Assembly (NCBI GenBank): GCA_021650915.1
Contig: CP091279.1
Coordinates: 180,001-212,000 of the forward strand
Length of the DNA stretch: 32,000 nucleotides
Source of the DNA: Candidatus Brocadia sp.
GTDB taxonomy: Bacteria; Planctomycetota; Brocadiia; Brocadiales; Brocadiaceae
Direction of reading: 5' to 3'
The notes beneath the pieces were generated by a model. The model had not been told where the DNA came from, made no database searches, and saw nothing but the letters and a program-made list of their open reading frames with translations. Below are positions 3,406-21,996 of the stretch, piece after piece; position 1 is the first letter of the stretch, and each line of letters begins with the position of its first letter. Made by a program: the position numbers and the translations under genes.

Positions 3406-3523
3406 CGAAATTTGAAACAATTTCAAAGTCACAAATTCAAATGCGCGCAACCGGGATTTACATTTTTTACCTCCCCCCTTGTCTGCCTGACTGCTGGATA
3501 TGGCGCTGAAATAAATACTTTCC

Positions 3524-3680
3524 AAAAACAGAGACAGCCTTACCGCCTGGATATTCACTAAAACATCTTCGGCAGTAAGGCTGTCTTTATACGGAGATGT
3601 GAGGCGCATTATCATACGCCCCGACAAAAGACCCTGTTACTTTGCGTCCCACGGTCACCCGTGGTTTGCCTTTATCGTGA
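3524..3680 (-). promoter_or_regulatory. c-di-GMP-I (GEMM-I)-like riboswitch with terminator hairpin, copy 1
   Basis: The minus-strand RNA reads GAUAAAGGCAAACC-ACGG-GUGA-CCGU-GGGACGCAAAG. That is the GGCAAACC / GNRA-capped stem / GGGACGCAAAG signature. A 16-bp hairpin follows (3571-3586 with 3532-3547, one G-U pair), then CUGUUUUU. The element lies 241 nt upstream of the sugar transferase start. Confidence 0.7.
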
Positions 3681-3721
3681 TATATTTACCTTGTTAGGGT
3701 GCGTTATTTGTGCAAAATCAT

Positions 3722-3871
3722 GTAACAATTTAGTTTTTTGAAAAATTACCATAATACGATGTTGCCGCACGGTGTAGGGGCGAAGCATTTGCCATACATT
3801 GGCATAAAGGTATTCACACCCCAAGCAGGCAAATGCTTCGCCCCTACCTTTTCAAAAAACTAAAGTGTTAC
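3722..3871. mobile_element. 150-bp MITE-like element with 23-bp terminal inverted repeats enclosing a REPIN-like hairpin
   Basis: The TIRs are gtaacaatttagttttttgaaaa (3722-3744) and ttttcaaaaaactaaagtgttac (3849-3871), matching at 22/23 positions. The internal arms are perfect 20-bp repeats: gtaggggcgaagcatttgcc (3774-3793) and ggcaaatgcttcgcccctac (3828-3847), separated by a 34-nt loop. Confidence 0.7.
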
Positions 3872-5496: not shown

Positions 5497-7048
5497 TTAA
5501 TCAACGGTTGGATTTGGCCGGAGATGGAATTCTGCTATCTTGTTATTCAGGCTTGAGCGGCTGATTCCGAGCTCTTTTGATGCATAGGTCTTGTTCCATC
5601 GTGCCCGTTTTAAGGCGTCGCAGACCATGTTTTTCTCAAGGGTACTGAGGGCATCGCTGAGTTTGGCTGGTTGTAGCATGGTTATGAGTCTGCAAACCGT
5701 TATACGCGTCCGCAAGGATTTCCTTGGGAATGTGTGTAATTTCAATAACCTCACTGGCGCCGGACAAAAGGATTAAACGCTCCATCAGGTTTTTCAGCTC
5801 ACGCACATTGCCCGGCCAACGATAGACCAGCAATAGTTCCCTCACCTCCCGGCCTATTTCCTTCCTCGGTTCTTTACGAGCTATGGCATAATAGTCCAAA
5901 AAGTAATTGGCGAGGGGGAGAATGTCTTCCCGCCTTTCCCTGAGCGGAGGCAGTGTCAGGTGGATCGTATTAATCCTGTAAAAGAGATCTTTTCTGAAGA
6001 GACCTTGTTCAATCAATCCTTTTAGCGATCTATTTGTTGCAGCAATAATTCTGACTTTTGCCTTTTTCTGTTCTGTGCCTCCCACCCGGTAAAACGACCC
6101 GTCTTCCAATACCCGCAGGAGCTTTGCCTGGATTTCGATATTCATGTCGCCAATCTCATCCAGAAATAATGTCCCCTTATCCGCAACTTCAAATAAGCCT
6201 TTCTTATCAGAGACGGCGCCGGTAAAGGAGCCTTTTTCATGTCCAAATAATTCCGAATTAAGAAGGGTATCACTAAACGCAGAACAATTCTGAATAACAA
6301 ATGTTTTATCTTTGCACGGACTGTTATAATGTATGGCGGCCGCTATCAGTTCCTTTCCCGTTCCGCTTTCACCTTCGATTAAAACAGGGCTTTCACTCCG
6401 TTCAATGAGCTCTAAGGTATCAAACACCTGTCTGATTGCCGGACTGGCGCCGATGATTCTCCTATACTTTTCTTTATAATTGCCCTCCAGGAGAAAGAGG
6501 CGCTTCTTTGTCGTTTCATTCTTTTCCTGTAAGTATTCGTAAAAGGCTGCGACATCTTCAGCGACATGTTTGACAAAGTCGGATATATATTCCTTCTTGT
6601 GCTGGTCGATCGTTTTCATGTTCCGGTAGCACTGGTCCAGTTCCATGCTATCAAAACCGAGCTCCATGAGCGTTTCCCGATACCTCTTTTGAATGGGATC
6701 GTCGTCTTTTAATGATCGGATACCGGATCCGATCATGACGCCCACATATTTTTGTTGTACCGGAACTGGAACTGCAAAGCCCTGCAGGCCCGCAAAACAT
6801 TGGTAAAAAAACGGTGTTTGGCTTTTCCTGCATTTTTTCAGTTCCTTCTGATACGTCTGAGCGCAAAGTTTTATTCCTTTGGGTATGGAATGGATTACGC
6901 TGCAGACGGGGTTCTGGAAAAACGTACGATAGTTTTTACAGGCGTCATATTCGTCATAAAACTGTATGTCAATACCCCACCAGGCGTAACTGATTTTCCG
7001 GAACGTCCTGATGACATGTGATTCTGCGATTTTAATCCAATCAATCAT
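5497..7048 (-). pseudogene. Sigma-54 enhancer-binding protein (PocR-like sensor + AAA+ + Fis-type HTH) with the HTH in a different frame
   Basis: ORF 5636..7048 carries GESGTGKE (Walker A), GSFTGA (GAFTGA-type sigma-54 contact loop), LFLDEIG (Walker B) and RVIAATN-like motifs. The N-terminus has a CFAGL...PV...YVG pattern reminiscent of PocR. The HTH_8 segment (LEKNMVCDALKRARWNKTYASKELGISRSSLNNKI) lies in ORF 5497..5754, whose codons are offset by 1 nt. The frame junction is somewhere in 5636-5700. Confidence 0.75.
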
Positions 7049-7129
7049 TGTGTCTGTTTATGCGTTTCAGAGATTATGGAATCAAAAACAAAAAGTATTG
7101 AGGCACTTGGTTTTTGTTTGCGATCACAC

Positions 7130-7209
7130 GTAGGGACGAAGCATTTGCTGGCACGATATGTCTTATAAGTCCTATAGGTTATATAAGCCAGCAAATGCTT
7201 CGCCCCTAC
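7130..7209. repeat. REPIN-like hairpin (GTAG-headed 23-bp arms, 34-nt loop)
   Basis: The arm gtagggacgaagcatttgctggc (7130-7152) pairs with gccagcaaatgcttcgcccctac (7187-7209) with 1 mismatch. It belongs to the same arm family as 3774-3847. Confidence 0.75.
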
Positions 7210-7237
7210 AACAAACATTGAAATTCCGATACATAAA

Positions 7238-7415
7238 CAAAAAAGCCTTGCTGCACTGATATTTTTCAAAACATCTTCGGCAGCAAGGCTATCTTTCTCA
7301 ACTACTTCCCTAAATTATTCCAAAGAACTTTTCTGTTCCTTCCACACCTCCCTGTGTGATGAAAGACCCTTTTCTTTGCGTCCCCTGATCGCTCAGGGTT
7401 TGCCTTTATCATCCT
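7238..7415 (-). promoter_or_regulatory. c-di-GMP-I (GEMM-I)-like riboswitch with intrinsic terminator, copy 2
   Basis: The minus-strand RNA reads GAUAAAGGCAAACC-CUGA-GCGA-UCAGG-GGACGCAAAG. An 11-bp hairpin AGCCUUGCUGC...GCAGCAAGGCU follows (7280-7290 with 7244-7254), then U6. The element lies 189 nt upstream of the sigma-54 activator start. Confidence 0.7.
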
Positions 7416-7439
7416 GTTTTATTAACTTTATACTGCGCC

Positions 7440-7468: not shown

Positions 7469-7835
7469 GTAAAAAAATAAAATACCATCGGTTCATAGAG
7501 ATGCCTGACAATGCACCGGACGTGCCCAACCGGTAACAAGCCGGGGTGTTGAGACGACCATTCATAATCGTATCGTACGGCCAACCGCTCACACATTCAG
7601 TCTCCCCGAATTTCATCGTGCAAAGACAACTTGCTTTCCACCGGATACATCATACCTTCTGCGTACTTTTTATCCTCCATCCGAACAATAATGTAACCGA
7701 TGGGAAAAGGCACACTTTTTTGTCACGGTCAATACTGACAAACATATCTGCAATCCATATTTTTCCCAATCCTTCCAGAGGTCTTCCTTTTTGCTCAGCA
7801 CCGCCCAGCCCACCGAAAAACGGGGCTTCCGCCTA

Positions 7836-10523
7836 TCACCGTGGCAATAAGGACGTTTCCAGAATTTTATACCACTCATTGAAGACATCCCGACTCCTCA
7901 AATCCAGAACCCTCTGTTCGTCACCCTGTCCCTTTTCGATCTCAGGCAACCGTGCTTTATCCGATAACTGCATCTGGTCTGACTTGAATGCCTCCCACCC
8001 TCCCAGCTTATCCGCAATGTGGTATCCAAGCGCACGGTACGCCTCAAACTGCGCCTCATCAAAGAACTGGTCGGCCGTCGATTCATGGGGAAAATCCTTG
8101 TTTTTCGAATGATACTCACGGATATATTCATTTTCATCACCCGTGAGGGAAGACTTGATGTACAGGAGATACCCCGTCTCTCCGTCTCCGTAATGAATTT
8201 TTCCGGATGCACAGTGTTTGTTGGTAAATTCATTTTCATCTTTTCCCCTTCGCAGGGCATTCAGATTAATGTCAATATCGATGCTCAAATCAATGCGGGC
8301 GTACCGTATCAGCTTCGCCAAACCTCCAAAAGTCATATCCGGATCTGCCTCCGCATCGCAGGCAATGATGTATTTGCACCTGCGGCGCAGCAGTTCATAA
8401 ATACCGAGGTTTTCAATGTGACCACCATCTGAGATATTCACATATTTACTATCTTCTGTAATCCAGCCAAATAGTTCTTTTACGAGATAGTACGGCCCGA
8501 CACCTGCAAATGGACTTCGACTATTATATTTTAGGAAAAGGTGTTTAGCCTTCCTTAATTTATGGGGATTTGGAATCCAATATCCCAGTCTGATATTAAG
8601 GAGCGCCATAATAAAAACAAGCGGTTTTATGGTGGTTGTACCCATATTAGGCGCTGCCGCAGCGCCGGATATGGCCATAGCGGTTCCCAGATCCAGGTGA
8701 GAATCCGCCTTTTCCATATCTGCCGTTTTACAAAATCCCGTTTTCATACCGCCGCAAAAGTGTTTACTGAGGATAAAAAAATCCGCATTCCGATCACGAA
8801 GATTAACATCCTCGCTTCCTTGCAGATTAAGCGCCACATTGATCAGGTGATACGGCGCCTTTGTGCCTCCTCTGTTTAGATGGGAAAGTTTTTGTTCATC
8901 ATTCGGTCGGATATTGCTCTCTTTTCCCGCTGTCTGAAACAAATACGCCGGGCTTAATTGGTCCCGGTAATAGTTGTGAAAAGACGTCCTGTTTATATCC
9001 GTAATTATCCTCGTAATACCAAACACTCCCGCGGCAGTGGCAAACAACATGGCTAAAGAAATATACCCGTTCAGCAGGCACTTACATAGCATTAAGTAAA
9101 GGAGGAAAAGAATAAATGGTCCCAGCATACCCAGGAACCAGAGTGTTATTTTCCCCCGCACCTTTGAAATATTTTCAGCCACCTTTCCGGCAAATATTAC
9201 CGGAATAAAGGAAATCACCGCGGCTATTACCGTCCTTATCCATTCCATGCCTAATGCGAGATAATAGGAAAGCACCGTTACTGTGAGTTCCAGAAGCGCG
9301 CATATAAAAACCAACAAGAGTCCAATGCTGAATGTTTTATCATAGCCGGTACGACTTTTGATCTTCTGGAAAAAAAATATCTGAATGAAAAGGAAGAGAA
9401 ATACATAGCACAGATAACCAATTCCAGACACTACGGTTAAACGATACTGGTTGTAAAATGTTTTCCAGTCCAACGAGAAATTTCTTTTATTGATCTGTTT
9501 TCCTACGAATGACCACCAGTTAACGTCGCCATCAATTCCCGTCAAAACATCCCTTATCTCTTGCTTTTGTTTAAACACCCTGCCTTCCAACTGTGCCATA
9601 ACCTCAGGAGGAAGTCCCTCCGACTTTAATTTTTCCCGGGCGTTTTCTGTAATTACATAGTGTGATTGTTGTTCCACCTCATTCAATGTATTACCATACA
9701 ATAATACCGTCACTATTACCGCCGCCATAACATACGGTAAGAGCAAGAGCAGATTAATCAGTGCGCCACGCACGAAAAGAGCCGGTATCTTTAGCCAGTC
9801 GATGATGCCATTCGGCGCGATATAATTGCCATAATTTCTCAGATGTTTAAATGCCAGAGGTTCTGGCTTTCCTTTCTCGTGGCGAAAGGGAAATTCCTTC
9901 TCCCCCGGTCCGGTTTCCGGATTATTGAGCACAGAACTCAGGCATGAGCCAATATACCCACCACCAGAAACGGTCGAGAGGTAATCAACGTGTTTAAGAG
10001 CCCCATGCTCTGCAAGCACCTGCAGGACACCAAGATTAAACGTGGCAGAGCGGATACCGCCGCCCGACAGAGCTAAACCAACAAGACCGTAGCTCGTTGT
10101 TGGTTTAGCTTTTTTCATTAATTCTTTCTTTTTATCCTCGTAAATATTTTTGCAGTGTTCATATTCAGCATTTGTTTCTCTTTCCCAAAAATTCTTGCAC
10201 ACCTGCCTTATGAACAATAAAGGGTTTTTCTTTTCTTTTTCAGAAAGATTTTTTCTGCATTTCTGGAAATTCCTATAGACCTTTTTAACAAGACTTCCCT
10301 TACCTTCCTCCTCTCTCTGAAGTTTTGTTTCCAAATCATGAAGGGTTTTTCGTATTCGTATTACTTCATCCATTTTTGAAAGTTCATTTATCAGATCTCC
10401 TCTTTCCGATCTGAAATCCGCAGGAGAGAATACTTCTTTCCGCCGCGCAGCAATCTCAATTAATTCGGTGGGAAACACTTCTCTATCAAACTGTTCGCTT
10501 AAATCACGATTCTTCTTTTTCAT
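7836..10523 (-). CDS. cPLA2/patatin-like phospholipase with about 6 TM helices inserted between the Ser and Asp motifs
   Basis: Motifs present are LSGGGIRSATF (oxyanion hole, GGGxR), STVSGGGYIG (nucleophile Ser) and ISDGGHIENLG (catalytic Asp). The N-terminal 150 aa are charged and coiled-coil-like. Six hydrophobic helices lie between roughly aa 255 and 520. The track ORF starts at TTG 10550; I prefer ATG 10523, which is preceded by AGGAG 7 nt upstream. Confidence 0.8.
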   Translation of the reverse strand: MKKKNRDLSEQFDREVFPTELIEIAARRKEVFSPADFRSERGDLINELSKMDEVIRIRKTLHDLETKLQREEEGKGSLVKKVYRNFQKCRKNLSEKEKKNPLLFIRQVCKNFWERETNAEYEHCKNIYEDKKKELMKKAKPTTSYGLVGLALSGGGIRSATFNLGVLQVLAEHGALKHVDYLSTVSGGGYIGSCLSSVLNNPETGPGEKEFPFRHEKGKPEPLAFKHLRNYGNYIAPNGIIDWLKIPALFVRGALINLLLLLPYVMAAVIVTVLLYGNTLNEVEQQSHYVITENAREKLKSEGLPPEVMAQLEGRVFKQKQEIRDVLTGIDGDVNWWSFVGKQINKRNFSLDWKTFYNQYRLTVVSGIGYLCYVFLFLFIQIFFFQKIKSRTGYDKTFSIGLLLVFICALLELTVTVLSYYLALGMEWIRTVIAAVISFIPVIFAGKVAENISKVRGKITLWFLGMLGPFILFLLYLMLCKCLLNGYISLAMLFATAAGVFGITRIITDINRTSFHNYYRDQLSPAYLFQTAGKESNIRPNDEQKLSHLNRGGTKAPYHLINVALNLQGSEDVNLRDRNADFFILSKHFCGGMKTGFCKTADMEKADSHLDLGTAMAISGAAAAPNMGTTTIKPLVFIMALLNIRLGYWIPNPHKLRKAKHLFLKYNSRSPFAGVGPYYLVKELFGWITEDSKYVNISDGGHIENLGIYELLRRRCKYIIACDAEADPDMTFGGLAKLIRYARIDLSIDIDINLNALRRGKDENEFTNKHCASGKIHYGDGETGYLLYIKSSLTGDENEYIREYHSKNKDFPHESTADQFFDEAQFEAYRALGYHIADKLGGWEAFKSDQMQLSDKARLPEIEKGQGDEQRVLDLRSRDVFNEWYKILETSLLPR

Positions 10524-10549
10524 TTTTTCGCTCCTGTTCTTCGAGAGCA

Positions 10550-10580
10550 AAGAATCCGCCCGCAGAGCAGGCTGATTCTT
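10550..10580 (-). other. Intercistronic hairpin between the caspase-fusion and phospholipase genes
   Basis: The segment aagaatc (10550-10556) pairs with gattctt (10574-10580), and gcc (10558-10560) pairs with ggc (10570-10572). No U-tract follows. Function is unknown. Confidence 0.35.
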
Positions 10581-10583
10581 TAC

Positions 10584-13145
10584 TTAGTTATCCAGTGCAT
10601 TGCGTTTCACTTCAAAAAATTCTGAAATTTTTCTGTACGTCTCCGCCTGTTTAAAGTAATTAAGGTGGTAGACATGGTCTGCTGGCTGAAATGCATGGCT
10701 TAATGTCTTTTTACCTTGAATGCCTTTTGGCCAGTCAACAATCATTTTTTCTGTATCAACCACTAAATCATTTGGCGCGCCGAAAAAGGCATCGGCAATG
10801 CCGTCAATAATGTCATCCCTGACCCCACCCGCGGAAATTCCTGATGGTTCAAACTCAGACCCAATCGTGTCATACGTTACCACCCCCTTAACATCAGTAC
10901 CTTTCTTGTTTAAGGTGTTGATAAAATCTGAATGGGGATCCATTGCCCAAATCCCTGGAATTGACTGATCTTTGATTTTCTGAGAAAGGAACTTAACCAA
11001 CCCGCCAACGAGGCTAAAGAAAATTTTCATGGGCGCCCCGCCGGCGAAAAAGAAGATATTCGTTAACAGATTGACCATTTTTGACAATGAATCCCATTTG
11101 CTGGTATCTGCCAGACTGGTTCCACCCGCAGGACACGCAACCATAGTTACCCTATCTACGTATCGATATCCTTCGTCAGTAAGCTCGACCAGAGACCGCA
11201 ATACCAGCCCACCACGGCTATGCGTTATTACATCAAACTTCAAACCCACATCCGAAATACCGGATTCCTTCAATTTCATCAGCATCTCACGGGCATTCTC
11301 AAGAGGAGTTTTTGACAGGGTGAAATGGTCATATCCCAGAATGACGGGATAGGTATCCTTTAACGTCTCCAGAATTGCCGGTGGTACATCTTCATATCCG
11401 CCCTCAAGAGAACTTCCTGTGCCATGAATGAAGAGAAGCGCCTTCTTGTTGCCTTTTACCAAATCCCTGACACCATCCCAATGGGTTACCGGATCGGTTT
11501 TTGATAGTCCTTCAACAAAGCCCTTGCTGTGCTCGATCAGCTTAAAGCCTTCCTTGATTACCTTTTCTTCAAATGCCTGCAACATCTTTTTTATAGCTTC
11601 AGAACTGCCCTCCTGGAACCAGTCTTTCGTAAATTTGATAACACAAACAAGCTTGCTCCATATCCCCCGTGTAGTCCTGTTCTGCACCTTAAAAGGAATG
11701 GTAAAAAAGCTCATTGGGCGTATTTCGTCACCCATCAGCCCCTTACTTGCCCCATCATCATCCTTAAAGTGCCACGCCCATACACCGTCTTCATGTGAGA
11801 GAAGAACCGTCTCTTGTTCTGTCTCTCCGGTTTTTTTGAGTTCACCTCTAATGGCAAGTTGAATTGGTTTCAACAGTTCTTCTATACCAATAACACGCTG
11901 TTCATTCGGACAAAATTCAAGCACCTTTTCAACCTTGAAGTATTCACCGTTTTCCAGAAAATCAAGACATTCCGGATGATAAGCATCGCCAATTGCATTA
12001 CGACTGCCATCCTTTGCCTTCCGGTTTGCTATGTCGGTCAAATCCCTTACCGTTCCAATAAATTCAGATGAGGGAAGAAGAATTACATCTCTCGAAATTG
12101 CACATTTTAAATTTTTAGAGGAAATAGATATACGTCTTAATGCCCCATTATCCCCCTGGGATTTGAAATCTGATACGGGGGAGTCTGAAGAAACCGGACT
12201 CGTGTAACCTTTCGGCGGATGCCCTTCACTGCATATCAGGGGGTGCCCATGTTCACAGGTAAGTTCGGTCTTCATGGCTGCAGACAAAAACCTTGTATTT
12301 TTTAGATCTTCATTCCCGAATAATTGCGGAATTTGACTGAAGGAATTATATGCAAGACTATTTTGCACCCTTTTCACAAGTTCCTGATAGGTTATCGTTC
12401 CTCTTGTATCCCGGATTGTTTTGCAAAGGTTATAGGTAAAGGCGCCATGGTAGTCGTTACTAATAAAGGCATCGGCAGAGGTCTGGTCGTCCATACACCC
12501 CGACAGGAGGATATGCTTTGCTTTGGCGCTCGTTTCGGACGCCGTATTTTTCTTGTCTTCCTTAATTCTTGCGCCCATTCGCCGGACAGCCGCCATTCTC
12601 CGGTAGCTTCTCAATGCAACATCCGCCGGTGGCTCAATAAAACGCGGCTGGATCTTTATTTCGCCGGGAGAAATTTGCAACTGCGAAGTAAGATATGCAA
12701 GGTCCCTGGTCGCAGTTCCAGAATGACATGAATCGATACACACCGTTAAAAAAGCCCCCTTAGGTATGCGATCGATGATATCGTTAAAGTCGTCATCAAG
12801 CAGGTAGGAATCCGGATTCCTGAAATCCATATCGTGCAAACAGAGGATTTCATCCAGCGAATCTTCCAGTTCATCGCCATCGCGATCCTGTATCTGTGAG
12901 CCATGCCCTGAAAAATGGAATACCAGGATATCTCCTTCCCGGGCTTCGTCTAAAAGCCAATCAAACCGGTTCATCAGGTTATTCCGGGTAACACCCTCAT
13001 CAACAATGGTCCGAATTTCATCCGTCCGAAACCCGTAAAAACTCGTCAGAATGTCGACCATGTTGCGCACATCGTTGACACAGCCATTGAGAGGTCTTAC
13101 GTATTTATACTTGTTGACCCCCACCAACAATGCCTTTTTCCCCAT
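10584..13145 (-). CDS. Caspase-like peptidase (C14) fused to a C-terminal alpha/beta hydrolase (esterase/lipase-like) domain
   Basis: The N-terminus reads KKALLVGVNKY...NGCVNDV...FHFSGHGSQ (catalytic His) ...CIDSCHSGT (catalytic Cys). The central ~300 aa were not recognised. The C-terminus reads ALLFIHGTGSS...VITHSRGGLVLRS (nucleophile elbow variant). The ATG directly abuts the upstream gene's stop (TAG|ATG), and AAGGAGG lies 5 nt upstream. Confidence 0.8.
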   Translation of the reverse strand: MGKKALLVGVNKYKYVRPLNGCVNDVRNMVDILTSFYGFRTDEIRTIVDEGVTRNNLMNRFDWLLDEAREGDILVFHFSGHGSQIQDRDGDELEDSLDEILCLHDMDFRNPDSYLLDDDFNDIIDRIPKGAFLTVCIDSCHSGTATRDLAYLTSQLQISPGEIKIQPRFIEPPADVALRSYRRMAAVRRMGARIKEDKKNTASETSAKAKHILLSGCMDDQTSADAFISNDYHGAFTYNLCKTIRDTRGTITYQELVKRVQNSLAYNSFSQIPQLFGNEDLKNTRFLSAAMKTELTCEHGHPLICSEGHPPKGYTSPVSSDSPVSDFKSQGDNGALRRISISSKNLKCAISRDVILLPSSEFIGTVRDLTDIANRKAKDGSRNAIGDAYHPECLDFLENGEYFKVEKVLEFCPNEQRVIGIEELLKPIQLAIRGELKKTGETEQETVLLSHEDGVWAWHFKDDDGASKGLMGDEIRPMSFFTIPFKVQNRTTRGIWSKLVCVIKFTKDWFQEGSSEAIKKMLQAFEEKVIKEGFKLIEHSKGFVEGLSKTDPVTHWDGVRDLVKGNKKALLFIHGTGSSLEGGYEDVPPAILETLKDTYPVILGYDHFTLSKTPLENAREMLMKLKESGISDVGLKFDVITHSRGGLVLRSLVELTDEGYRYVDRVTMVACPAGGTSLADTSKWDSLSKMVNLLTNIFFFAGGAPMKIFFSLVGGLVKFLSQKIKDQSIPGIWAMDPHSDFINTLNKKGTDVKGVVTYDTIGSEFEPSGISAGGVRDDIIDGIADAFFGAPNDLVVDTEKMIVDWPKGIQGKKTLSHAFQPADHVYHLNYFKQAETYRKISEFFEVKRNALDN

Positions 13146-14390
13146 CTACTCCTCCTTTTTGTAAAATAACTCCCCTCTGTTGCTCGTGCCATTCCATAAT
13201 TGAAACCCTTGTACTTCATTCGACTGGTCATCAATCTTGAAGATGACATAATCAATCGATTCCTGTTGTCCAAATACGATCTGCTTTTTCTTGTATCCAC
13301 CGGGGACAATCCTTCTTCTCCAGGTGCCGGTATTTACATAATATTTTTCCTTGCCGTCCTCCACATTCAGGAGTTGGACACAACTTTCATGGGTGTGACC
13401 AAAGAGGACGTAGTCGCACTGATGTTGCTCGCACAATTTTAATGCTTCCAACGCATTCTTGTCCGTGTCTTTGATAAAATCCCGCTTGATTTCCAAAAAT
13501 TTTTCGTAAACCCGTTCCAGGGTGGTATCCGTAAAGTGCTTGAATGCTATTTCAAGTTTATCAGCATCATCGGGGAGCAGACTCCAATAGTCGTGCTTTT
13601 GCAACCACTCTTTAACAAACGCATCATGAAAGAATTTATCCGACAGTATGTTCCAGGTATCGATTAATATCTTCTGATTTTTAGGCTTCAGGGACTTCTT
13701 CACCTGGTCAATCCAGTACGGTGTCATGGTAGACGGCCTGAGATTATCGATCTCCTGAAGGGCGTCAAATACATCCGGATCATCGATAACCTTGTTAACC
13801 TCTTCGGGATATTGATTAATTAAGAGCGTTACAATTGCATCGCCTACCGGCAGTGCATTATTTTCCGTTTTATTGTATACGTCATAATTATTGCCATGAA
13901 CTGCATAGACAGGCAACCCGTCTACCCGATATTCCCAGGGAAATGGTTCGCCCTTGCTTTTTGTGTAAGAAATTCCTGAAACGTCCCGGATTTTTTCTCT
14001 CATATCCTCGTACCCTTCGCTATTAATCAGACGGTCGTGATTCCCCATGATATAGGTAATTTTCACCTTTTTTTCTTCTACGTATCCCTTTAAGGTATCA
14101 AAGACCGATTTATTTTTTTTGATCACTTTACTTAAAACCTCGTCCACCCGCTCCTTTTTTTTCTTTGAAGCTTCTGACCACGGCTGCATATCTCCTGTCC
14201 ACTGCGTCGAGCGGATTACATCGATAAAATCACCGAGGATGATAATTTCCAATTTTTTCGTGCCGCCTGCGTTGTCTACGTCACCTTGAATATCACTCCA
14301 GAATCCTTCGAGCGTACCGGCAGTAATATTATGATCGCCTGTGGTAGTATCTGACAAATGAACATCACTGAAAAAGACCTTTATCGACAT
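13146..14390 (-). CDS. Calcineurin-like metallophosphoesterase
   Basis: The ordered motifs are FFSDVHLSD, ILGDFIDV, MGNHDRL, AVHGNNYD and LFGHTHES. A GGAGAAGG SD lies upstream of ATG 14390. Confidence 0.8.
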   Translation of the reverse strand: MSIKVFFSDVHLSDTTTGDHNITAGTLEGFWSDIQGDVDNAGGTKKLEIIILGDFIDVIRSTQWTGDMQPWSEASKKKKERVDEVLSKVIKKNKSVFDTLKGYVEEKKVKITYIMGNHDRLINSEGYEDMREKIRDVSGISYTKSKGEPFPWEYRVDGLPVYAVHGNNYDVYNKTENNALPVGDAIVTLLINQYPEEVNKVIDDPDVFDALQEIDNLRPSTMTPYWIDQVKKSLKPKNQKILIDTWNILSDKFFHDAFVKEWLQKHDYWSLLPDDADKLEIAFKHFTDTTLERVYEKFLEIKRDFIKDTDKNALEALKLCEQHQCDYVLFGHTHESCVQLLNVEDGKEKYYVNTGTWRRRIVPGGYKKKQIVFGQQESIDYVIFKIDDQSNEVQGFQLWNGTSNRGELFYKKEE

Positions 14391-14620
14391 AACCTTCTCC
14401 TTCTCATTAAAGAATAGACTTAACGATTAACCAATTACCCATTTGTTGTCTTAACAGATGGTAAGATTTTTTAGGCATCCAAATTTTTCTTTCTAAAATA
14501 TTTGTTTGATGGTTCTCTCTATTTCTGCGGATGATCGTTACAGCGTATAGACACATTATCAATGGCCGCACAGAAACTTATAATTCCTTACTATCAAGAT
14601 CAAACCCCAAGCGACCGGAC

Positions 14621-15982
14621 TTATTTTTTAAGATGTGACACTCTGCCCCCCTCGTTGTTTTGAAGAATTCTCACTGCGTTTCGCAGTTGCTGAATCCATA
14701 ATGGAGTCCCAGTTCTCTCTTTCCAATTTTTAGGAAAAGACCAATACAGCGTGTGGCTGAATAGCCCCAAGCGGAGATTGGTTTTAACTGCAACATCCTT
14801 GACACCTTGCCCGAACATTGGCGCGACCGGTCCACCGATCAAATCACCCCAGAATGTCCAATGGCAAGGGAAATAGAGGTTGGTCCAGCGGGTAGGTGCG
14901 AATACCGCCGCATGGTGTGGCACCCAAACACCATCCTTCTCGAATGAAAAGGTTTTCAGCTTTAACTTTTTCACAGTCCTGTCTTCTAAGACAGGTGGAC
15001 AAGCCGGAAACTCGCGCTCTTCTTCTTTACGTACAAAATTCCGTTCGTCCCGTGCCAATAACACAGATGCGTGTGCAAGCGGGCTACCCAAAGTAACAAA
15101 ATCAGTTACCTTCCATTTATTTCCCTGACTCTGTAGCTCAGTCAGATAAGCAGATTGGATTGTTTGATACGTTTTTATGTCTAGACTTCCGGTTAAGGAC
15201 TCTCGAACCATATTTTCTAACTTATCAAGCTCTGTGTACGTGGTTGGATTTCTAGATGCAGCCATTACATGAGCATTATGATAACGTACCCAAAGATGCG
15301 TCAGGATGTCATATCCAATCACACTTCCTAAACTGTGTCCTACGACAATAATACGATCATACCTAGGTGAGGAATGCAATTTTTCCAGGAGTTGGATTCC
15401 AGCCTCACGAATCCGGCGTCGAATTTCTATATTTGGCGGGGCGACATGTAAATAACGTGCTGCATCCCCGGCATATTTGATAAGAAATCCAATGAGCAAT
15501 GAGTTAAAAATAAACCATGCAAAGCTACCTACCTTTATGACCCATAGCGAAATCGGCACGAACTTAAACACATGGTTCAAACCGGCTATTACTGCCAGCA
15601 AAAAGAGCGCGATGATCAAGTACCAAATGCCACGCAGTTGCCTGGGTACACGCCAAGGCCAGCGCAAGACCAAAACCTTGGCCCATGCGCCGACATGAGA
15701 AAGAGTCGTACCTTCCATTAAATGCGCCCAATAGAATTCAAAGAAATCCGTCCTCTTCTTGTCACGATTGTCAGCGGTAGTCAGTCGTCTGAGTTCAAAG
15801 TTGCCTGAAATTGCGTCTGGTTTGCTCAAAGCCTGGGCTGGTTTATTGGACCAGCGAAGCGACGAATCGGTAACCCATACTGCCTCAACAAACCCGCGCA
15901 GTGTGTCCATTGGTACTTGTTCGCCGATGCCGTGAATCAAGACGACTGCTTGTTTTGGTTCTGGTTTTTCCTCTTCTGCCAT
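14621..15982 (-). CDS. Membrane-embedded alpha/beta hydrolase (lipase-like, GHSLG)
   Basis: VVLIHGIGEQ lies near the N-terminus. Hydrophobic helices follow (IWYLIIALFLLAVIAGL, WVIKVGSFAWFIFNSLLIGFLI), then IIVVGHSLGSVIGYD. A perfect AAGGAGGT SD precedes the ATG. Confidence 0.75.
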   Translation of the reverse strand: MAEEEKPEPKQAVVLIHGIGEQVPMDTLRGFVEAVWVTDSSLRWSNKPAQALSKPDAISGNFELRRLTTADNRDKKRTDFFEFYWAHLMEGTTLSHVGAWAKVLVLRWPWRVPRQLRGIWYLIIALFLLAVIAGLNHVFKFVPISLWVIKVGSFAWFIFNSLLIGFLIKYAGDAARYLHVAPPNIEIRRRIREAGIQLLEKLHSSPRYDRIIVVGHSLGSVIGYDILTHLWVRYHNAHVMAASRNPTTYTELDKLENMVRESLTGSLDIKTYQTIQSAYLTELQSQGNKWKVTDFVTLGSPLAHASVLLARDERNFVRKEEEREFPACPPVLEDRTVKKLKLKTFSFEKDGVWVPHHAAVFAPTRWTNLYFPCHWTFWGDLIGGPVAPMFGQGVKDVAVKTNLRLGLFSHTLYWSFPKNWKERTGTPLWIQQLRNAVRILQNNEGGRVSHLKK

Positions 15983-16030
15983 GCTTTACCTCCTTTGTGA
16001 TAATTAACCATTAAGAACAAAGCAAACAAT

Positions 16031-17587
16031 TTATGTACTGACAGAAAAGGGGGCAAAACGTTTTATAAGCAACCAGATTAATTGCCCCATGTCTTTGTCT
16101 AAAATGTCATTATGTGCATCATTTGGTTTATTTTCACCATTGCTAGAATTACATCCATCAACTATTACACTAGCGTCAATCAGTATTACTTTTTTCTCAT
16201 CTTCTTTCGGTATTTTTGATAATTTATCCAAATCTGTTTCGTAATTGTTTGTCCATTTGATCACATGAAAGACACCCTCATTATTTTCTTTCTTTATTTT
16301 TTTATTTTTTTCTTCTTCATTTTCTTTTTTTTCTGCATAGGCCAAACCATATTTACCGCCAACATGCCGTGAACCGGTAATAAAACGTGCAGTTTGATTT
16401 GCTGTATCATACCGTGACGATGTCAATGTAAATTTGGTCTCGTAATCTTTAAATCCTGCATAAGGAGAGCCTTCCCATCCTGCGTTTGCTACGAACCTTT
16501 TTGCACTGAATGCCCCCTGTAATCCGATAAAAAGATCTGCGTGTGACTCTGAAGAACTCTTGCGCAATTCAGACTTTTCAGACTTTTCAGGTTTTATATA
16601 TTCCTTACTAATAATTGCCTGAGAAAGGATCTGCGCTCCCATGCTGTGACCGATGGCAACAATCCTGGGACTAAAATCCTCTTTATATTCTTTCTTACAA
16701 TCGGTTTGAAATTCTTCTTTCGCTGACAATACTACCTTATGAATAACCCAATTTGCAATGGTACACCCAATTTCATCAGCATCGCCTTGTTTGGTAAAAT
16801 AACTAAAAAGAAATACTGTGTTTTTTTTCAACCAATTATTTTCTATTCCAGACCAAACGCTAGGCCATGTAAAACCAATTACCAGCGGGTTAAAGGAATC
16901 GCCTTTCTCATTATGAGCAGCATTTTTAACCTTATCAAGTATTGTATTGTAGCGATATATTGATTCCTGTTGATTGTTATTCCACCCCATAGACAAAATA
17001 ATGATGTGAGAATACGGTTTTTCCTGCTTTTCCGGCTCCCTACGCCATGTATGCACTTTTTCCTTTAAATCACTTACCAGCCTTTTTTCTAAGCATTCAA
17101 GCGCCTCGTATCCATCCTCGTAGTTTAAGTCATCTTTTTTATATTCGTCATAGGCATTATACAGAAAGTATGGCTTTCTATGTGTGTTAAAAGGACTGTT
17201 ATCTGGTTCTTCAAAATATCGCGCAATATGCGTTATTAGCATTGCCGTGTCGTCACCTGTGTATCTTTTAAAATTTTTGTCTCTTTTCTTTTTCTTTTTA
17301 ATCTCAGGGTCTCCACTATTTTCTTTGGATTCAGAAAGCAGTGAAAATCGGTCCGGATAACACTCCTCCGGAATCCCTCTTAATGATTCTCTTTCCCTTT
17401 TTTCAATACCAATAAGATAACCATCGTATTCTAATGAGAGATGTGATATGCGAGCCAGGTCACTGTATGGCAAATACGTTTGTATTTTACTGTTTTTGTA
17501 AATATTTTTTGTTTGCATCTTATTAGCCGAGCATCCGGCAAGAATCAGTAGCGAGAACAGTACAAAACCAAGATTATACTTTCGCAT
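16031..17587 (-). CDS. Lipoprotein alpha/beta hydrolase (GHSMG; DUF900-like esterase)
   Basis: From ATG 17587 the N-terminus is MRKYNLGFVLFSLLILAGC, a signal peptide ending in a lipobox. The nucleophile motif is IVAIGHSMGAQI. The protein has Lys/Glu/Asn-rich low-complexity stretches, and the DNA is AT-rich. The track start at 17635 is TTG and contains the RBS, so I reject the extension. Confidence 0.7.
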   Translation of the reverse strand: MRKYNLGFVLFSLLILAGCSANKMQTKNIYKNSKIQTYLPYSDLARISHLSLEYDGYLIGIEKRERESLRGIPEECYPDRFSLLSESKENSGDPEIKKKKKRDKNFKRYTGDDTAMLITHIARYFEEPDNSPFNTHRKPYFLYNAYDEYKKDDLNYEDGYEALECLEKRLVSDLKEKVHTWRREPEKQEKPYSHIIILSMGWNNNQQESIYRYNTILDKVKNAAHNEKGDSFNPLVIGFTWPSVWSGIENNWLKKNTVFLFSYFTKQGDADEIGCTIANWVIHKVVLSAKEEFQTDCKKEYKEDFSPRIVAIGHSMGAQILSQAIISKEYIKPEKSEKSELRKSSSESHADLFIGLQGAFSAKRFVANAGWEGSPYAGFKDYETKFTLTSSRYDTANQTARFITGSRHVGGKYGLAYAEKKENEEEKNKKIKKENNEGVFHVIKWTNNYETDLDKLSKIPKEDEKKVILIDASVIVDGCNSSNGENKPNDAHNDILDKDMGQLIWLLIKRFAPFSVST

Positions 17588-17827: not shown

Positions 17828-17860
17828 GTCAGTGCCACCTGCCCTGCTGGTGGCACTGAC
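17828..17860. other. 12-bp GC-rich hairpin between the first and second genes of the cluster
   Basis: The segment gtcagtgccacc (17828-17839) pairs with ggtggcactgac (17849-17860) across a 9-nt loop. No U-tract follows on the minus strand. It could be a partial terminator or an RNA processing or stability element. Confidence 0.4.
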
Positions 17861-17971: not shown

Positions 17972-19837
17972 TTACGGAGCCACTGTCGGTGTAGGCGAAA
18001 CAGTCTCTATAGGTTTAGTTTTGAAAGATTCTTCAGATCCCTCAGATTTGCCTAAAGTATTTTCTGCTGCAATTCTGTAATAATATGTAGCGCCAAGTAA
18101 TAAGCCTTTTATTTCAACATTTATTAGCTTCTCTTCCTTATCAGTTACCTCTATCTTATCAGACTGGCTTCCATATGCCCCACTGACTGTGCCGTAGTCA
18201 AACCAAGCTGTTGTTGAAGCGCCATTGGCAGTTACCATTCCATGCAGCGTAGCAGAATTTGCAGTTGTATTCGTGGCTGTACCTGTTTCCACCGTTGGGG
18301 TAGAGATTTTGGTAACGAATGAATTCTCACTTCCATAAGCCGTATCTGCGGAATTTTTTACTGCAATTCTGTAATGATATGTAGTAGCAGGCTTTAAATC
18401 ACTTATTTCAGCTGTTACCGGTGTATCGCCTGTTCCGGTTATTGTTCCCGGCTGCGCATCTTTTTTTCGGCTATAATTTCCGGATTGCGTGCCATAATCA
18501 AACCACGCGTTAGTGGATGCATCACTATTGGCAGTTACTGTCCCATGCAATGTAACAGAATTTGCAGTCATACTCGTAGCCGTACCTGTTTCTACTGTTG
18601 GTTTAGGGATTACCACGTCTACAGCAAAATTGCCTGAACGACCAAGCACATTAAACACGGTTACAGTCGAGGAACCTGGTCCAACGCCTTTAATTACGAT
18701 TCTATCAGTGCCCCGTTCAAAATCACTAATATTATCAACAGTCACTACTCTTATATCATCAGATGCATACGTTATTGCCTTGCTATTGATTACATGTACA
18801 GTATGAGTTCCTCCAACACTAATGCTCAATCTCGTTGGCACTACTTTGATTTCTCCCAACTTTTCAAGCATTCCTGTTGCCGCCTTTAAATCCTCGATTG
18901 TCGGAATCGTCTGAAATAACGCCTTATCAACCAGTTTTAGGCAAGCCGCTGTCTCTACCAAAAGCTGGCTTCCTTCCGGGGTAAGTTTTTCTGCACTTAT
19001 TGTGGTTATAGCCCCATTTTGTGTCATTTTCTGGTAATAACGCGCCTCAGCGTCCTGGAGTAATGCAAGTCCATCTTTGTATGCTCCAACCCTGTCTCTT
19101 GCCTGAAAGATATTCTGCAGTTCTGGTATAACAGCGCTAACTGCGGCCAAAGCAGCAGCAGTTGTTACATCCTTTGTAATAAGACCCAACGTTGCACCGG
19201 CAGCAGCAGCAAGTATCTGCACTGTACCCGAACCCAGCCGCACTCTTCTTCCAAAATCCATTCTCGCTCTTAGTGCCTTTTGTATATCACTGGAGAATCC
19301 AATAACATCCGCATCGGTTACTTTAACGTCTTTCAACGGCACGCTCACTCCAAGCCCAGTAAATTCAATACTATTATCCTTTACTTTGAACTTCATTCCA
19401 TTTACAGCATATTCTTTTTCCTCATACTTAATCAAATCATTGAGTACTGGTTTGATATTTTCTTCTATAATCTGGTCTTCAGGTTTTAAATTAACCGTTT
19501 GGATATGTATTTTGATTTTGTCCGTGCATGCCTTTATCAGCTCATCTTTCTTTTTTTCTTTATTTTCACTATCTACCAACTCTCGGAGGGCCTTTTTGAC
19601 CTCACCTTCTTTACCTGGCTTAATAAAATCACGGATCTTTTCTACACTCTTCTCTATATTGTCATCTTTTGTCATAACCATAGAACGAGCCCACACCCTG
19701 TCCAGCAAGGTAGGTTGATATTTATAATATTTTTTATCTGCTCTAAAGGGGTGATAACCACATCCAACAATACTGCTTGATGACACAGAAAAAACCAAAA
19801 AATATACTAATTTACTGCTTTTCACACGGTTACCCAC
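17972..19837 (-). CDS. Lipoprotein with Ala-rich hydrophobic segment, Big_2-like domain and two FN3-like repeats
   Basis: The start is GTG with AAGGAG 6 nt upstream. The lipobox is SSIVGC (Cys26). Residues 331-408 resemble Big_2 (IVIKGVGPGSSTVTVFN). Residues 413-510 and 514-608 are paralogous PTVETGTAT...ANS.TLHG.VTAN...AWFDYGT...Y.YRIA repeats. Confidence 0.75.
   Translation of the reverse strand: MGNRVKSSKLVYFLVFSVSSSSIVGCGYHPFRADKKYYKYQPTLLDRVWARSMVMTKDDNIEKSVEKIRDFIKPGKEGEVKKALRELVDSENKEKKKDELIKACTDKIKIHIQTVNLKPEDQIIEENIKPVLNDLIKYEEKEYAVNGMKFKVKDNSIEFTGLGVSVPLKDVKVTDADVIGFSSDIQKALRARMDFGRRVRLGSGTVQILAAAAGATLGLITKDVTTAAALAAVSAVIPELQNIFQARDRVGAYKDGLALLQDAEARYYQKMTQNGAITTISAEKLTPEGSQLLVETAACLKLVDKALFQTIPTIEDLKAATGMLEKLGEIKVVPTRLSISVGGTHTVHVINSKAITYASDDIRVVTVDNISDFERGTDRIVIKGVGPGSSTVTVFNVLGRSGNFAVDVVIPKPTVETGTATSMTANSVTLHGTVTANSDASTNAWFDYGTQSGNYSRKKDAQPGTITGTGDTPVTAEISDLKPATTYHYRIAVKNSADTAYGSENSFVTKISTPTVETGTATNTTANSATLHGMVTANGASTTAWFDYGTVSGAYGSQSDKIEVTDKEEKLINVEIKGLLLGATYYYRIAAENTLGKSEGSEESFKTKPIETVSPTPTVAP
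18014..18601 (-). repeat. Intragenic tandem duplication encoding the two FN3-like repeats
   Basis: The repeat units are 18308-18601 and 18014-18298. Their ends share ccgtacctgtttc(t/c)ac(t/c)gttgg, and the protein repeats align clearly. Confidence 0.7.
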
Positions 19838-20085
19838 ATGATTCTCCTTTTTTCTTTTGGCGTATGAATTTTGCTGAAGAAAATTTACAAAGACTCATCA
19901 ACATACAGCCTCGTTATGAAGCACATCATTTATGCACCCATAAAAGGTCTAACATACCGATATTTATTAATTCCCACCCCTGACACTTTTTTAGGTATTT
20001 TTTCGCACCTCCTTTTATAAACCCTTCTAAACTGACCTTGTTGATCAGCCATAATGTTTTATTTTCAGGACCCTTTCACCATAAT

Positions 20086-20240
20086 AAAAAAAGCCTTACT
20101 GCAAAGATTTTTCAAAACATCTTCGGCAGTAAGGCTGTCTTTATTCCTGGGGATCGTGTTTTCTAAACCACTTCCGTGTCGGCTTAAAGATCCACTACTT
20201 TGCGCCCCCTGATCACTCAGGGTTTACCTTTCTCGTTATG
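20086..20240 (-). promoter_or_regulatory. GEMM-I-like riboswitch with intrinsic terminator, copy 3 (variant core)
   Basis: The minus-strand RNA reads GAGAAAGGUAAACC-CUGA-GUGA-UCAGG-GGGCGCAAAG. The hairpin AGCCUUACUGC...GCAGUAAGGCU follows (20126-20136 with 20092-20102), then U6. The core differs from copies 1 and 2 at two conserved positions (GGU vs GGC; GGCGC vs GACGC). The element lies 248 nt upstream of the lipoprotein GTG. Confidence 0.55.
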
Positions 20241-20387
20241 TTTCCTAAAATGATAATTCGCAAAATAGTAGCCATTGAAAGGTAATAATAACAATTTTAG
20301 TGAATCATTTCATAATTCCCTGAATTCATGAGGCTTACAAATAGGAAAAGTCTAGGAATAGCTAACGGTAAGCGAAAGGAGGTTGGC

Positions 20388-20447
20388 AAAAAAGTGTGTC
20401 ATGGCACAGATGTGCCAGTTACAAAAGTGTGCCATGACACACTTTTT
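20388..20447. terminator. Perfect 15-bp hairpin flanked by A6 and T5 (bidirectional intrinsic-terminator shape)
   Basis: The segment gtgtgtcatggcaca (20394-20408) pairs with tgtgccatgacacac (20428-20442) across a 19-nt loop. A-run 20388-20393 and T-run 20443-20447 flank it. It sits between the IS element and riboswitch copy 3. Confidence 0.6.
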
Positions 20448-20680
20448 ATTAAGGCATGCATTTGAGTTCTTCTGGAAAAGGAGAGAGCAGAAGTCTATCA
20501 AAAACCTTTAACACGCCTCAAGCCGCTCTTTTTAGAGTGGAGGTTAATGTTTCCGCTGCCAACAAAAGACTATGCATTTCCTTCCAAGCAAGCAAAAAAC
20601 TCTTTTCTCCAATACTAAGCGATGCTTCTTTTGTAGTATTTTCCAAAAGATGTTGATGTCTTTAGCAAAAATATAAAATA

Positions 20681-21996
20681 GGTTCTTCTCCCAATTAGTT
20701 TGCAAAAGCTTGTATAATTTTTAATGAAAAGTACCGTTCGTCATGAAATCCATAAGCTTTTCTTTTGATAACTTTGATCTTATTATTAACCCCTTCGAGT
20801 TTACTGGTATGAATTTTATAATCGCAGTGATTCAAGATTCCGTAGCTGTATTTTGTAAGCATATTTGCAAACGTATTCACGACAGAATAGTTGAGCGTTT
20901 TCGCTAAGAGGCTCCATTCATCAATGGCTTTTCTCGCCCACGTCCGTGAGGTATAGGTCCAAATATGTTTGAGCTTATCTTTAAGAATCAGAATGGTATT
21001 TATGGTTTCATTAAGCGACAAGAGCTGTTTGAGATGTTCTCGATGTTTTTTCCTGCGAATATTTCGTTTGTTTTTTAACAAAAGATATTTTGAACCCTTT
21101 TTGGTATTCAGCATTTCGCACCTTGTCAATAACTTTACCAAAACTTGAAACCACATGAAACAGGTCAAAGACTATCTTAACATGAGGCACGTGCTTTTTT
21201 ACTGCATGAATATAAGGATCCCACATATCCATGGCAATGGCCTCAAGCGCCTGCCTTTGTTCCTCTGTCATACCCGCAAAGAAGGTTCCCAGCGTTTCTT
21301 TTGTTCTTTCCTTTCCCACCCAGACTACGCGGCCACTCAGATAGTCCAGAACAACAGTCAAATAGCGCTGTCCCTTCTTAACAGAGATTTCGTCTACTGC
21401 CAGTATGCGAAGATTCTGATAATCTGTCTGCGCGTATTGTCGTTCCAGAAAAAACGTATCGATGGTTTTTACGGTTTTCCAGTTAATTCCAAAATGTTTT
21501 GCAACTTCGGTTACGGCTAACACTTTACACAATTCGTGAATATACGCTGCTAAACGATGCGTAACACGACTGTAGGGTTGAAAAAAACCCAAGTCTTCAA
21601 CTACGATTCGATTGCATGACTCACAGGCAATCTTACGATACGAACAATTTATCCATACGCGAACTGAACCAGGATTCAGATCCCGCAAAGATCGTTTGTC
21701 ATGACGGTAAATGCGCTGTGCTTTGCTGCCACACGCATGACATATTGGACGAAATCGTTCATCGGGCACGGCAGTAAGCTGAGATATCTCAGCATCAGGA
21801 AAAACAGTTTGCTTCGTAATTCTTACCCGCTGAAAAGGAAAATATGGTAATATACTTAATGGGGACATTGCTGGTCTCCTGTAAATAGTTTATAGAACGG
21901 TATATATCTATCTATAGGAAACACCAAATATCCACTCTTTTCACTGATTTAAAGGATTTTCTTCTCAATTCTTATTGACTAATTGGGAGAAGAACC
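20681..21996 (-). mobile_element. ISL3-family insertion sequence (1316 bp) with perfect 19-bp terminal inverted repeats
   Basis: The repeat ggttcttctcccaattagt (20681-20699) is the reverse complement of actaattgggagaagaacc (21978-21996). The GG(C/T)TCTT start is typical of ISL3 ends. The element encloses the transposase frames. Confidence 0.85.
20695..21868 (-). pseudogene. ISL3 transposase, split by a frameshift in a homopolymer
   Basis: ORF 21011..21868 carries a zinc-finger-like CHACG...CESC segment and the N-terminal DDE part. ORF 20695..21168 carries KGSKYLLLKNKRN...EGVNNKIKVIKRKAYGFHDERYF. The frames join at the run 21098-21102 (A5 on the coding strand). With A4 the reading would be EYQKGSKYLL, a continuous transposase. 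Confidence 0.8.

Follow-up and report, generated by a model that had tools for sequence, protein, structure and literature searches.

A probable lineage-typical class I c-di-GMP riboswitch, predicted to act as an ON switch, upstream of a surface lipoprotein gene and a hydrolase/caspase cluster in Candidatus Brocadia

Within the 32,000-nt stretch of the Candidatus Brocadia genome analysed here (the window), an Rfam cmscan over the whole sequence detects three class I c-di-GMP aptamers, all on the minus strand, and the third of these (copy 3) is very likely functional as a c-di-GMP riboswitch of class I (GEMM-I, known since 2008), typical of its lineage and predicted to operate as a c-di-GMP ON switch. 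The copy 3 aptamer at 20122-20238 (-) matches the c-di-GMP-I model RF01051 with 50.3 bits versus a gathering score of 35 (E = 3.6e-7) and covers all model positions (1-87 of 87), a match that is far above chance. Besides this score, the RF01051 features G20, A47 and C92 (Vc2 numbering), the C44-G83 pair, covariation in helices P1 and P2 and a coupled expression platform are found. Copy 3 is a known kind of element, for which family membership, conservation of the contact bases, an aptamer-terminator overlap, covariation and synteny are observed, and its ligand is most probably c-di-GMP, as judged from the aptamer sequence.

All elements of the GEMM-I layout that an earlier note had read from the minus strand are present, and the cmscan against RF01051 proposed there gave the significant match above the gathering score. 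In the direction of transcription, AAAGGUAAACC (20221-20231, -) is followed by the P1b hairpin CCCUGA-GUGA-UCAGGG (20207-20222, -), bearing the GNRA tetraloop already recognized in the note, by GGCGCAAAG (20198-20206, -) and, at the 3' end, by the terminator stem AGCCUUACUGC/GCAGUAAGGCU (20126-20136 with 20092-20102, -) running into a U6 tract (20086-20091, -), so that the described 11-bp stem plus U6 is located at 20086-20136. Pairing and conservation refer to an alignment of 26 elements, i.e., the three from the window and 23 anammox-type loci. P1b is 100% paired over these homologues, with compensatory changes in three of its six pairs, and P1 of copy 3 is likewise 100% paired, its loop being GUGA. 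In P2, nine of the ten modelled pairs are standard; the exception is an A-C mismatch which the orthologues carry as well, and a bulge of ambiguous register is also conserved in them. Across the alignment, 94.2% of the aptamer helix cells are paired, with four compensatory pairs. Vc2 positions were taken from the cmscan alignment, in which A47 is the first A after GACGC, in agreement with the Vc1/Vc2 offsets in PMC4744006. On this basis, G20 is found at 20228, C44, G45, C46 and A47 at 20204 to 20201, G83 as inter-helix partner of C44 at 20135 and C92 at 20126 (all -), each being invariant in 26/26 cassettes; G21-C46, A47-A49, U90 and C93 are equally invariant. A relaxed Rfam scan of 19700-20600 for other RNA families returned only hairpin noise.

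The 5' arm of the terminator (20126-20136, -) consists of G83, the P2 3' strand, G91 and C92, and aptamer and terminator are therefore mutually exclusive, while the 3' arm and the U6 tract together occupy 20086-20102 (-). This overlap design is common to all three copies of the window, and the terminator stem is 98.6% paired over the 26 cassettes, with two pairs changed on both sides (e.g., UGCC/GCAG to UACC/GUAG, copy 2 having UUGCUG/CAGCAA). When the full transcript is folded, the minimum-free-energy structure is the terminator form at -52.7 kcal/mol, whereas the best fold keeping the aptamer (P2) only reaches -43.4 kcal/mol; the aptamer-length transcript alone folds GEMM-I-like. Since the terminator form is 9 kcal/mol more stable and excludes the aptamer, termination is the likely default state, and ligand binding should allow read-through, corresponding to a c-di-GMP ON switch whose direction is predicted from these folds.

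During transcription, the aptamer would form first, beginning with P1 and its GUGA tetraloop and followed by P2. Binding of c-di-GMP via G20, A47 and C92 would then lock the P2 3' strand and C92 in the aptamer, so that the 11-bp terminator would be blocked and RNA polymerase could read into the gene of a 621-aa surface lipoprotein and probably further into the hydrolase/caspase cluster, as far as the gene arrangement suggests. Without ligand, the stabler terminator would win and transcription would stop at the U6 tract. Hence, high c-di-GMP levels are expected to turn expression on.

The first gene downstream (17972-19837, -) encodes the 621-aa lipoprotein with lipobox IVGC and two FN3/Pur_ac_phosph_N-like domains; its GTG start at 19837 has an AAGGAG ribosome-binding site ahead of it and lies 245 nt beyond the terminator. 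It is followed by a same-strand cluster of five genes (7836-17587, -) for a DUF900 hydrolase lipoprotein, a 453-aa protein with the look of an alpha/beta-hydrolase, a metallophosphoesterase, a caspase-DUF7379 fusion and a patatin-like protein. Searches with PADLOC and NCBIfam did not find a known defence system in this cluster, giving only generic caspase matches. In a second Brocadia genome (locus L251), an orthologous riboswitch region, 74% identical over 371 nt, is followed by orthologues of four of the cluster genes, with amino-acid identities to the window copies of 86% for the metallophosphoesterase, 70% for caspase-DUF7379, 60% for the patatin-like protein and 61% for the DUF900 protein. 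As the orthologous switch precedes the orthologous cluster there, the link between riboswitch and cluster is conserved. The patatin-like gene of the window (7636-10550, -) encodes 895-904 aa versus 1162 aa in the L251 orthologue, and fragments matching the missing C-terminus are found at 7636-7811 in other frames, suggestive of a frameshifted or decaying 3' end.

How far the control reaches is less clear-cut than its upstream position suggests. The functional c-di-GMP switch might govern only the 621-aa lipoprotein, with the hydrolase/caspase cluster merely being adjacent and driven by its own promoters, a reading that is quite conceivable, albeit on balance somewhat doubtful. It would fit the gap of 336-384 nt between the lipoprotein and DUF900 genes, which holds a 12-bp GC-rich hairpin, the second gap of 230 nt at 14391-14620 ahead of the metallophosphoesterase gene, and the finding that the first gene behind the orthologous riboswitch is a different one (291 aa in L251, unlike the 621 aa here). 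However, the riboswitch-cluster link has been kept in the second Brocadia genome despite the reshuffling of genes, all genes share one strand, the hairpin has no U tract and a caspase-like stub directly behind the riboswitch, described below, suggests an old link to the caspase family. The hairpin itself (17828-17860, -) may serve in RNA processing or stabilisation or act as a factor-dependent terminator limiting riboswitch control. Because of the intergenic gaps and this hairpin, co-transcription of the whole cluster is only putative. Of the control over the cluster suggested in the earlier note, the upstream position and the orthologous riboswitch/cluster pair in L251 thus stand. If control does extend that far, the riboswitch may put the caspase/patatin/esterase cluster under c-di-GMP, for matrix remodelling or cell death in the granule lifestyle.

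Behind the other two copies, a sigma-54 activator with PocR sensory domain (5636-7048, -) and a Bac_transf sugar transferase (1826-3283, -), a priming enzyme for exopolysaccharide synthesis, are encoded, so that a regulator and a matrix-synthesis gene are predicted to be under the same c-di-GMP ON control. At other anammox loci, the genes behind this cassette encode secreted or surface proteins, as is usual for c-di-GMP regulons, among them a beta-helix plus Big-domain protein as well as DUF11, Big_5, IgGFc-binding-like, M6 peptidase and TPR lipoproteins. A palindromic repeat GTAGGGGCGAAGCATTTGC ... GCAAATGCTTCGCCCCTAC, which may be a REP- or MITE-like element, occurs twice in the window, at 3771-3847 upstream of copy 1 and at 7127-7209 downstream of copy 2.

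Upstream of copy 3, a perfect 19-bp inverted repeat AAAAAGUGUGUCAUGGCAC ... GUGCCAUGACACACUUUUUU with A/T-run flanks (20388-20447) is probably a bidirectional terminator insulating the riboswitch unit from a broken ISL3 transposase, and a homologue of this repeat is found upstream of the riboswitch in L251, L059 and L089. The ISL3-family transposase, directly upstream of the riboswitch unit (20695-21868, -), is split into two overlapping ORFs (285 and 157 aa) and presumably frameshifted or inactive. A motif scan gave a sigma-70-like promoter (ATGAAA, 17 nt, TG-TATTAT) at 20285-20313 (-), which is only a candidate, as such matches are no more numerous in the region than in shuffled sequence. 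Behind the terminator, a 41-codon leader ORF (MADQQ...VGINKYRYVRPFMGA*, 19930-20052, -) shares its first five codons (MADQQ) and the sequence upstream of them with the start of a 1109-aa gene that follows a homologous riboswitch in Brocadia sp. WS118 (L059), while its residues 24-40 resemble a caspase N-terminus (63% over 19 aa, E = 6e-4). A homologue of the 1109-aa gene was not found in the window. The leader ORF looks like the vestige of a gene once directly behind the riboswitch, and the present association of riboswitch and first gene would therefore result from rearrangement.

In the alignment, aptamer, terminator and U tract form a cassette of striking uniformity. Among columns conserved to at least 90% (n = 70), copy 3 has no deviation, compared to three in copy 2 and seven in copy 1, and at a threshold of at least 80% (n = 92) the corresponding numbers are two, seven and eleven; copy 3 is closer to the family consensus than the other two copies. 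Its two deviations, a G bulge and the A-C mismatch in the P2 5' strand, recur in the orthologues from two further Brocadia assemblies (L251, and L254 with two copies), which share 88% identity with copy 3 over 175 nt, their flanks having diverged, a pattern indicative of purifying selection and not of decay. As the 13 remaining anammox copies with an RF01051 assignment score between 43.9 and 58.2 bits on this model, the 50.3 bits of copy 3 are typical. Hence, the decaying copy considered in the earlier note, taken here as a non-functional paralogue left by rearrangement beside the broken IS element, is highly improbable: the transposase directly upstream, the gene stub in the leader, the A-C mismatch and a score below that of copy 2 (55.2 bits) would agree with it, but the best-conserved columns are free of deviations across copy 3, fewer than in its two paralogues, the score is well within the family range, sub-type and mismatch have been kept at 88% identity across three Brocadia genomes despite diverged flanks, and terminator and downstream genes are intact.

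The P2 3' strand, terminator and U tract of the cassette (AGCCUUACUGCCGAAGAUG...GCAGUAAGGCUUUUUU) hardly vary among Brocadia, Jettenia and Scalindua. In the window, cassettes are located at 3515-3685, 7225-7420 and 20075-20245 (-), i.e., three copies within 17 kb, and elsewhere up to three per 8-kb locus occur, with 23 further loci found (e.g., L019, L024, L053, L081 and L102). The short-read assemblies L001 and L002 break inside the cassette, at a position corresponding to 20112 of the window. Copy 1 (3567-3679, -) is assigned to RF03167 (c-di-GMP-I-GGC) with 61.6 bits, just over the threshold of 59, yet it has A47 and not the G of that model. The same assignment despite A47 is seen in L053, L120, L112, L026, L088, L102 and many other anammox and non-anammox aptamers, and these RF03167 calls are misleading because the variant model cross-hits standard riboswitches.

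The two substitutions by which copy 3 had been reported to deviate from copies 1 and 2 and from the consensus (C to U and A to G) are real, changing GGC to GGU at 20226 and GAC to GGC at 20205 (-). The earlier note had suggested inspecting G20, A47 and C92 in this respect; all three are retained, and the substitutions are instead at Vc2 C22 and A43, outside the ligand contacts. At position 22, the pair becomes a U-G wobble since its partner G45 (20203) is unchanged, and position 43 is the middle base on the GAC side of the P1 internal loop. In the anammox cassettes, the 22/45 pair is UG in 20 and CG in six of the 26, and G43 is present in 18 of them. The combined 22/43 states are distributed as U/G 16, C/A 4, U/A 4 and C/G 2, so that the family consensus itself is U22/G43, and all four states are represented among paralogues that hardly differ otherwise, reside in single anammox genomes and precede similar types of genes. 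Accordingly, copy 3 looks like a variant only when set against the Rfam consensus, U22/G43 being the norm in its own lineage.

Beyond the anammox bacteria, a scan of one genome per species with AAAGGTAAACC...GGGRCGCAAAG (at least 120 loci) gave at least 124 U22 aptamers, with U22 accompanied by G43 87 times and by A43 37 times among the matches listed, which belong to Planctomycetota, Omnitrophota, Chloroflexota, Nitrospirota, Bacillota, Bipolaricaulota, Atribacterota, Proteobacteria and others. In an unselected metagenome scan with N at both positions (at least 124 aptamers), the 22/43 counts among the 124 aptamers listed are C/A 90, C/G 30, U/G 1, U/A 1 and other 2. G43 is thus an ordinary polymorphism, with a frequency of about 25% (31/124) among these, while U22 is rarer overall (about 2% of those listed), yet widespread. 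A corresponding scan of viral contigs for background frequencies gave only four loci, too few for use. U22/G43 aptamers from isolates and MAGs of other phyla reach RF01051 scores of up to 76.8 bits, for example in Tumebacillus lipolyticus. Taken together, U22 and G43 are common natural polymorphisms of the class for which a change of ligand is not expected.

This is in line with what is known about ligand recognition. G20 contacts the G-alpha base of the ligand and C92 pairs with G-beta in Watson-Crick geometry (PMC6140456, PMC5888326), while A47 intercalates in the ligand and the inter-helix pair C44-G83 is universally conserved (PMC4744006). Whether c-di-GMP or 3'3'-cGAMP is selected has been shown to depend on nucleotide 20, G versus A (PMC6140456, PMC6456294): the A20G exchange makes the GEMM-Ib riboswitch Gmet_0970 c-di-GMP-selective (PMC6456294), and for wild-type Vc2, which has G20, binding of cGAMP is reported at only 10 μM, compared to the picomolar range for c-di-GMP (PMC6140456). 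In copy 3, all three contact bases are unchanged, nucleotide 20 is G (20228) and not the A of GEMM-Ib, and position 47 is A (20201) where RF03167 has G, the score against the latter model being 49.8 bits versus a gathering score of 59. A full-text sequence search did not find a tested U22/G43 aptamer, the sole match being an untested example in the Riboflow preprint. A possible occurrence of U22/G43 in Geobacter GEMM-Ib aptamers, for which a sequence search of the literature gave no match, was given no weight. That copy 3 is a retuned sensor, as considered in the earlier note, with U22 and/or G43 shifting the ligand to, e.g., 3'3'-cGAMP or c-di-AMP in the way G20A does in GEMM-Ib, is hardly credible, although both positions are well conserved (upper-case) in the Rfam consensus and only one layer off the binding pocket and their co-occurrence above expectation (odds ratio 4.2 for unique P1 sequences, p = 3e-6) could mark a sub-class, considering the unchanged contact bases, the known selectivity determinant at nucleotide 20 (PMC6456294, PMC6140456), the low RF03167 score, the G43 frequency of about 25% among the metagenome matches listed and the four 22/43 combinations on near-identical paralogues, the latter being a pattern of neutral or mildly tuning variation.

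G43 is found in 64% of unique U22 but 29% of unique C22 P1 sequences, as derived from the genome loci L011-L130 and metagenome loci L131-L250 among the matches listed, and overall in 64-70% of U22 aptamers, compared to 25-29% of those with C22 (odds ratio 4-7). For the anammox family alone, an odds ratio of 8 is obtained (p = 0.05). These tests ignore phylogeny, and in the larger of them two collections are combined, so that the association is a lead only. Possibly, the U22-G45 wobble is physically coupled to G43 as a second-shell pair, with a stacking or base-triple interaction beside the binding pocket perhaps causing the enrichment, and the pair could define a c-di-GMP-I sub-class of different affinity or kinetics that dominates in anammox bacteria, Omnitrophota and Chloroflexota. 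If so, Brocadia would run paralogous switches with graded thresholds. Taken jointly, such a sub-class and a caspase/patatin/esterase module run by c-di-GMP are rather unlikely.

For riboswitch biology, the weight of these results is small, copy 3 being a standard class member whose variant bases are normal natural variation, and a deviation from the Rfam consensus at non-contact positions is no evidence of a new ligand specificity. Many near-identical, predicted c-di-GMP ON cassettes in front of genes for surface or secreted proteins fit c-di-GMP control of aggregation in anammox bacteria, which are used industrially, and in two Brocadia species one of these switches shows synteny with a caspase/patatin/metallophosphoesterase/esterase cluster that is poorly understood. 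Only two threads are mildly new, the putative c-di-GMP control of this cluster and the statistical 22/43 coupling, the latter being a small, testable structural hypothesis.

Compared to known systems, copy 3 belongs to the same Rfam clan (CL00126) as c-di-GMP-I-GGC (RF03167), a model that cross-hits many anammox copies including copy 1; the consensus of this variant has G at the A47 position (GACGCGAAG), whereas copy 3 has A and stays below the threshold. With the 3'3'-cGAMP riboswitches of Geobacter (GEMM-Ib; Gs1761, Gmet_0970), it shares the fold and, as far as predicted for copy 3, also the action as transcriptional ON switch before genes for extracellular or surface proteins, but these riboswitches have A20 and copy 3 has G20. 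Vc2 from Vibrio cholerae (RF01051; 3IRW, 3MXH) shows the same two-helix GEMM-I architecture and has G20, A47, C92, G21-C46, C44-G83 and a GNRA tetraloop on P1b in common with copy 3. It differs in having C22-G45 instead of the U22-G45 wobble, A43 instead of G43 and a GAAA tetraloop facing an 11-nt receptor, while the GUGA tetraloop of copy 3 faces a UCUUU/AAAGA helix; in addition, copy 3 has a 40-nt insertion in distal P2 and an explicit intrinsic-terminator platform. The closest relatives are the GEMM-I cassettes of Brocadia, Jettenia, Scalindua and related Planctomycetota; the Riboflow preprint (bioRxiv 10.1101/868695) shows one of these cassettes as a riboswitch example. Copy 3 falls within this family, its P1 sequence AAAGGUAAACCCUGAGUGAUCAGGGGGCGCAAAG recurring identically in genomes of Brocadia, Jettenia and other Planctomycetota as well as in the Riboflow example. 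The P2 3' strand, terminator and U tract are the same, and only distal P2 and the downstream gene differ. Within the family, copy 3 represents a sub-type characterized by the P2 5' strand GUAGUGGAUC with its conserved A-C mismatch, which is also found in L251 and L254.
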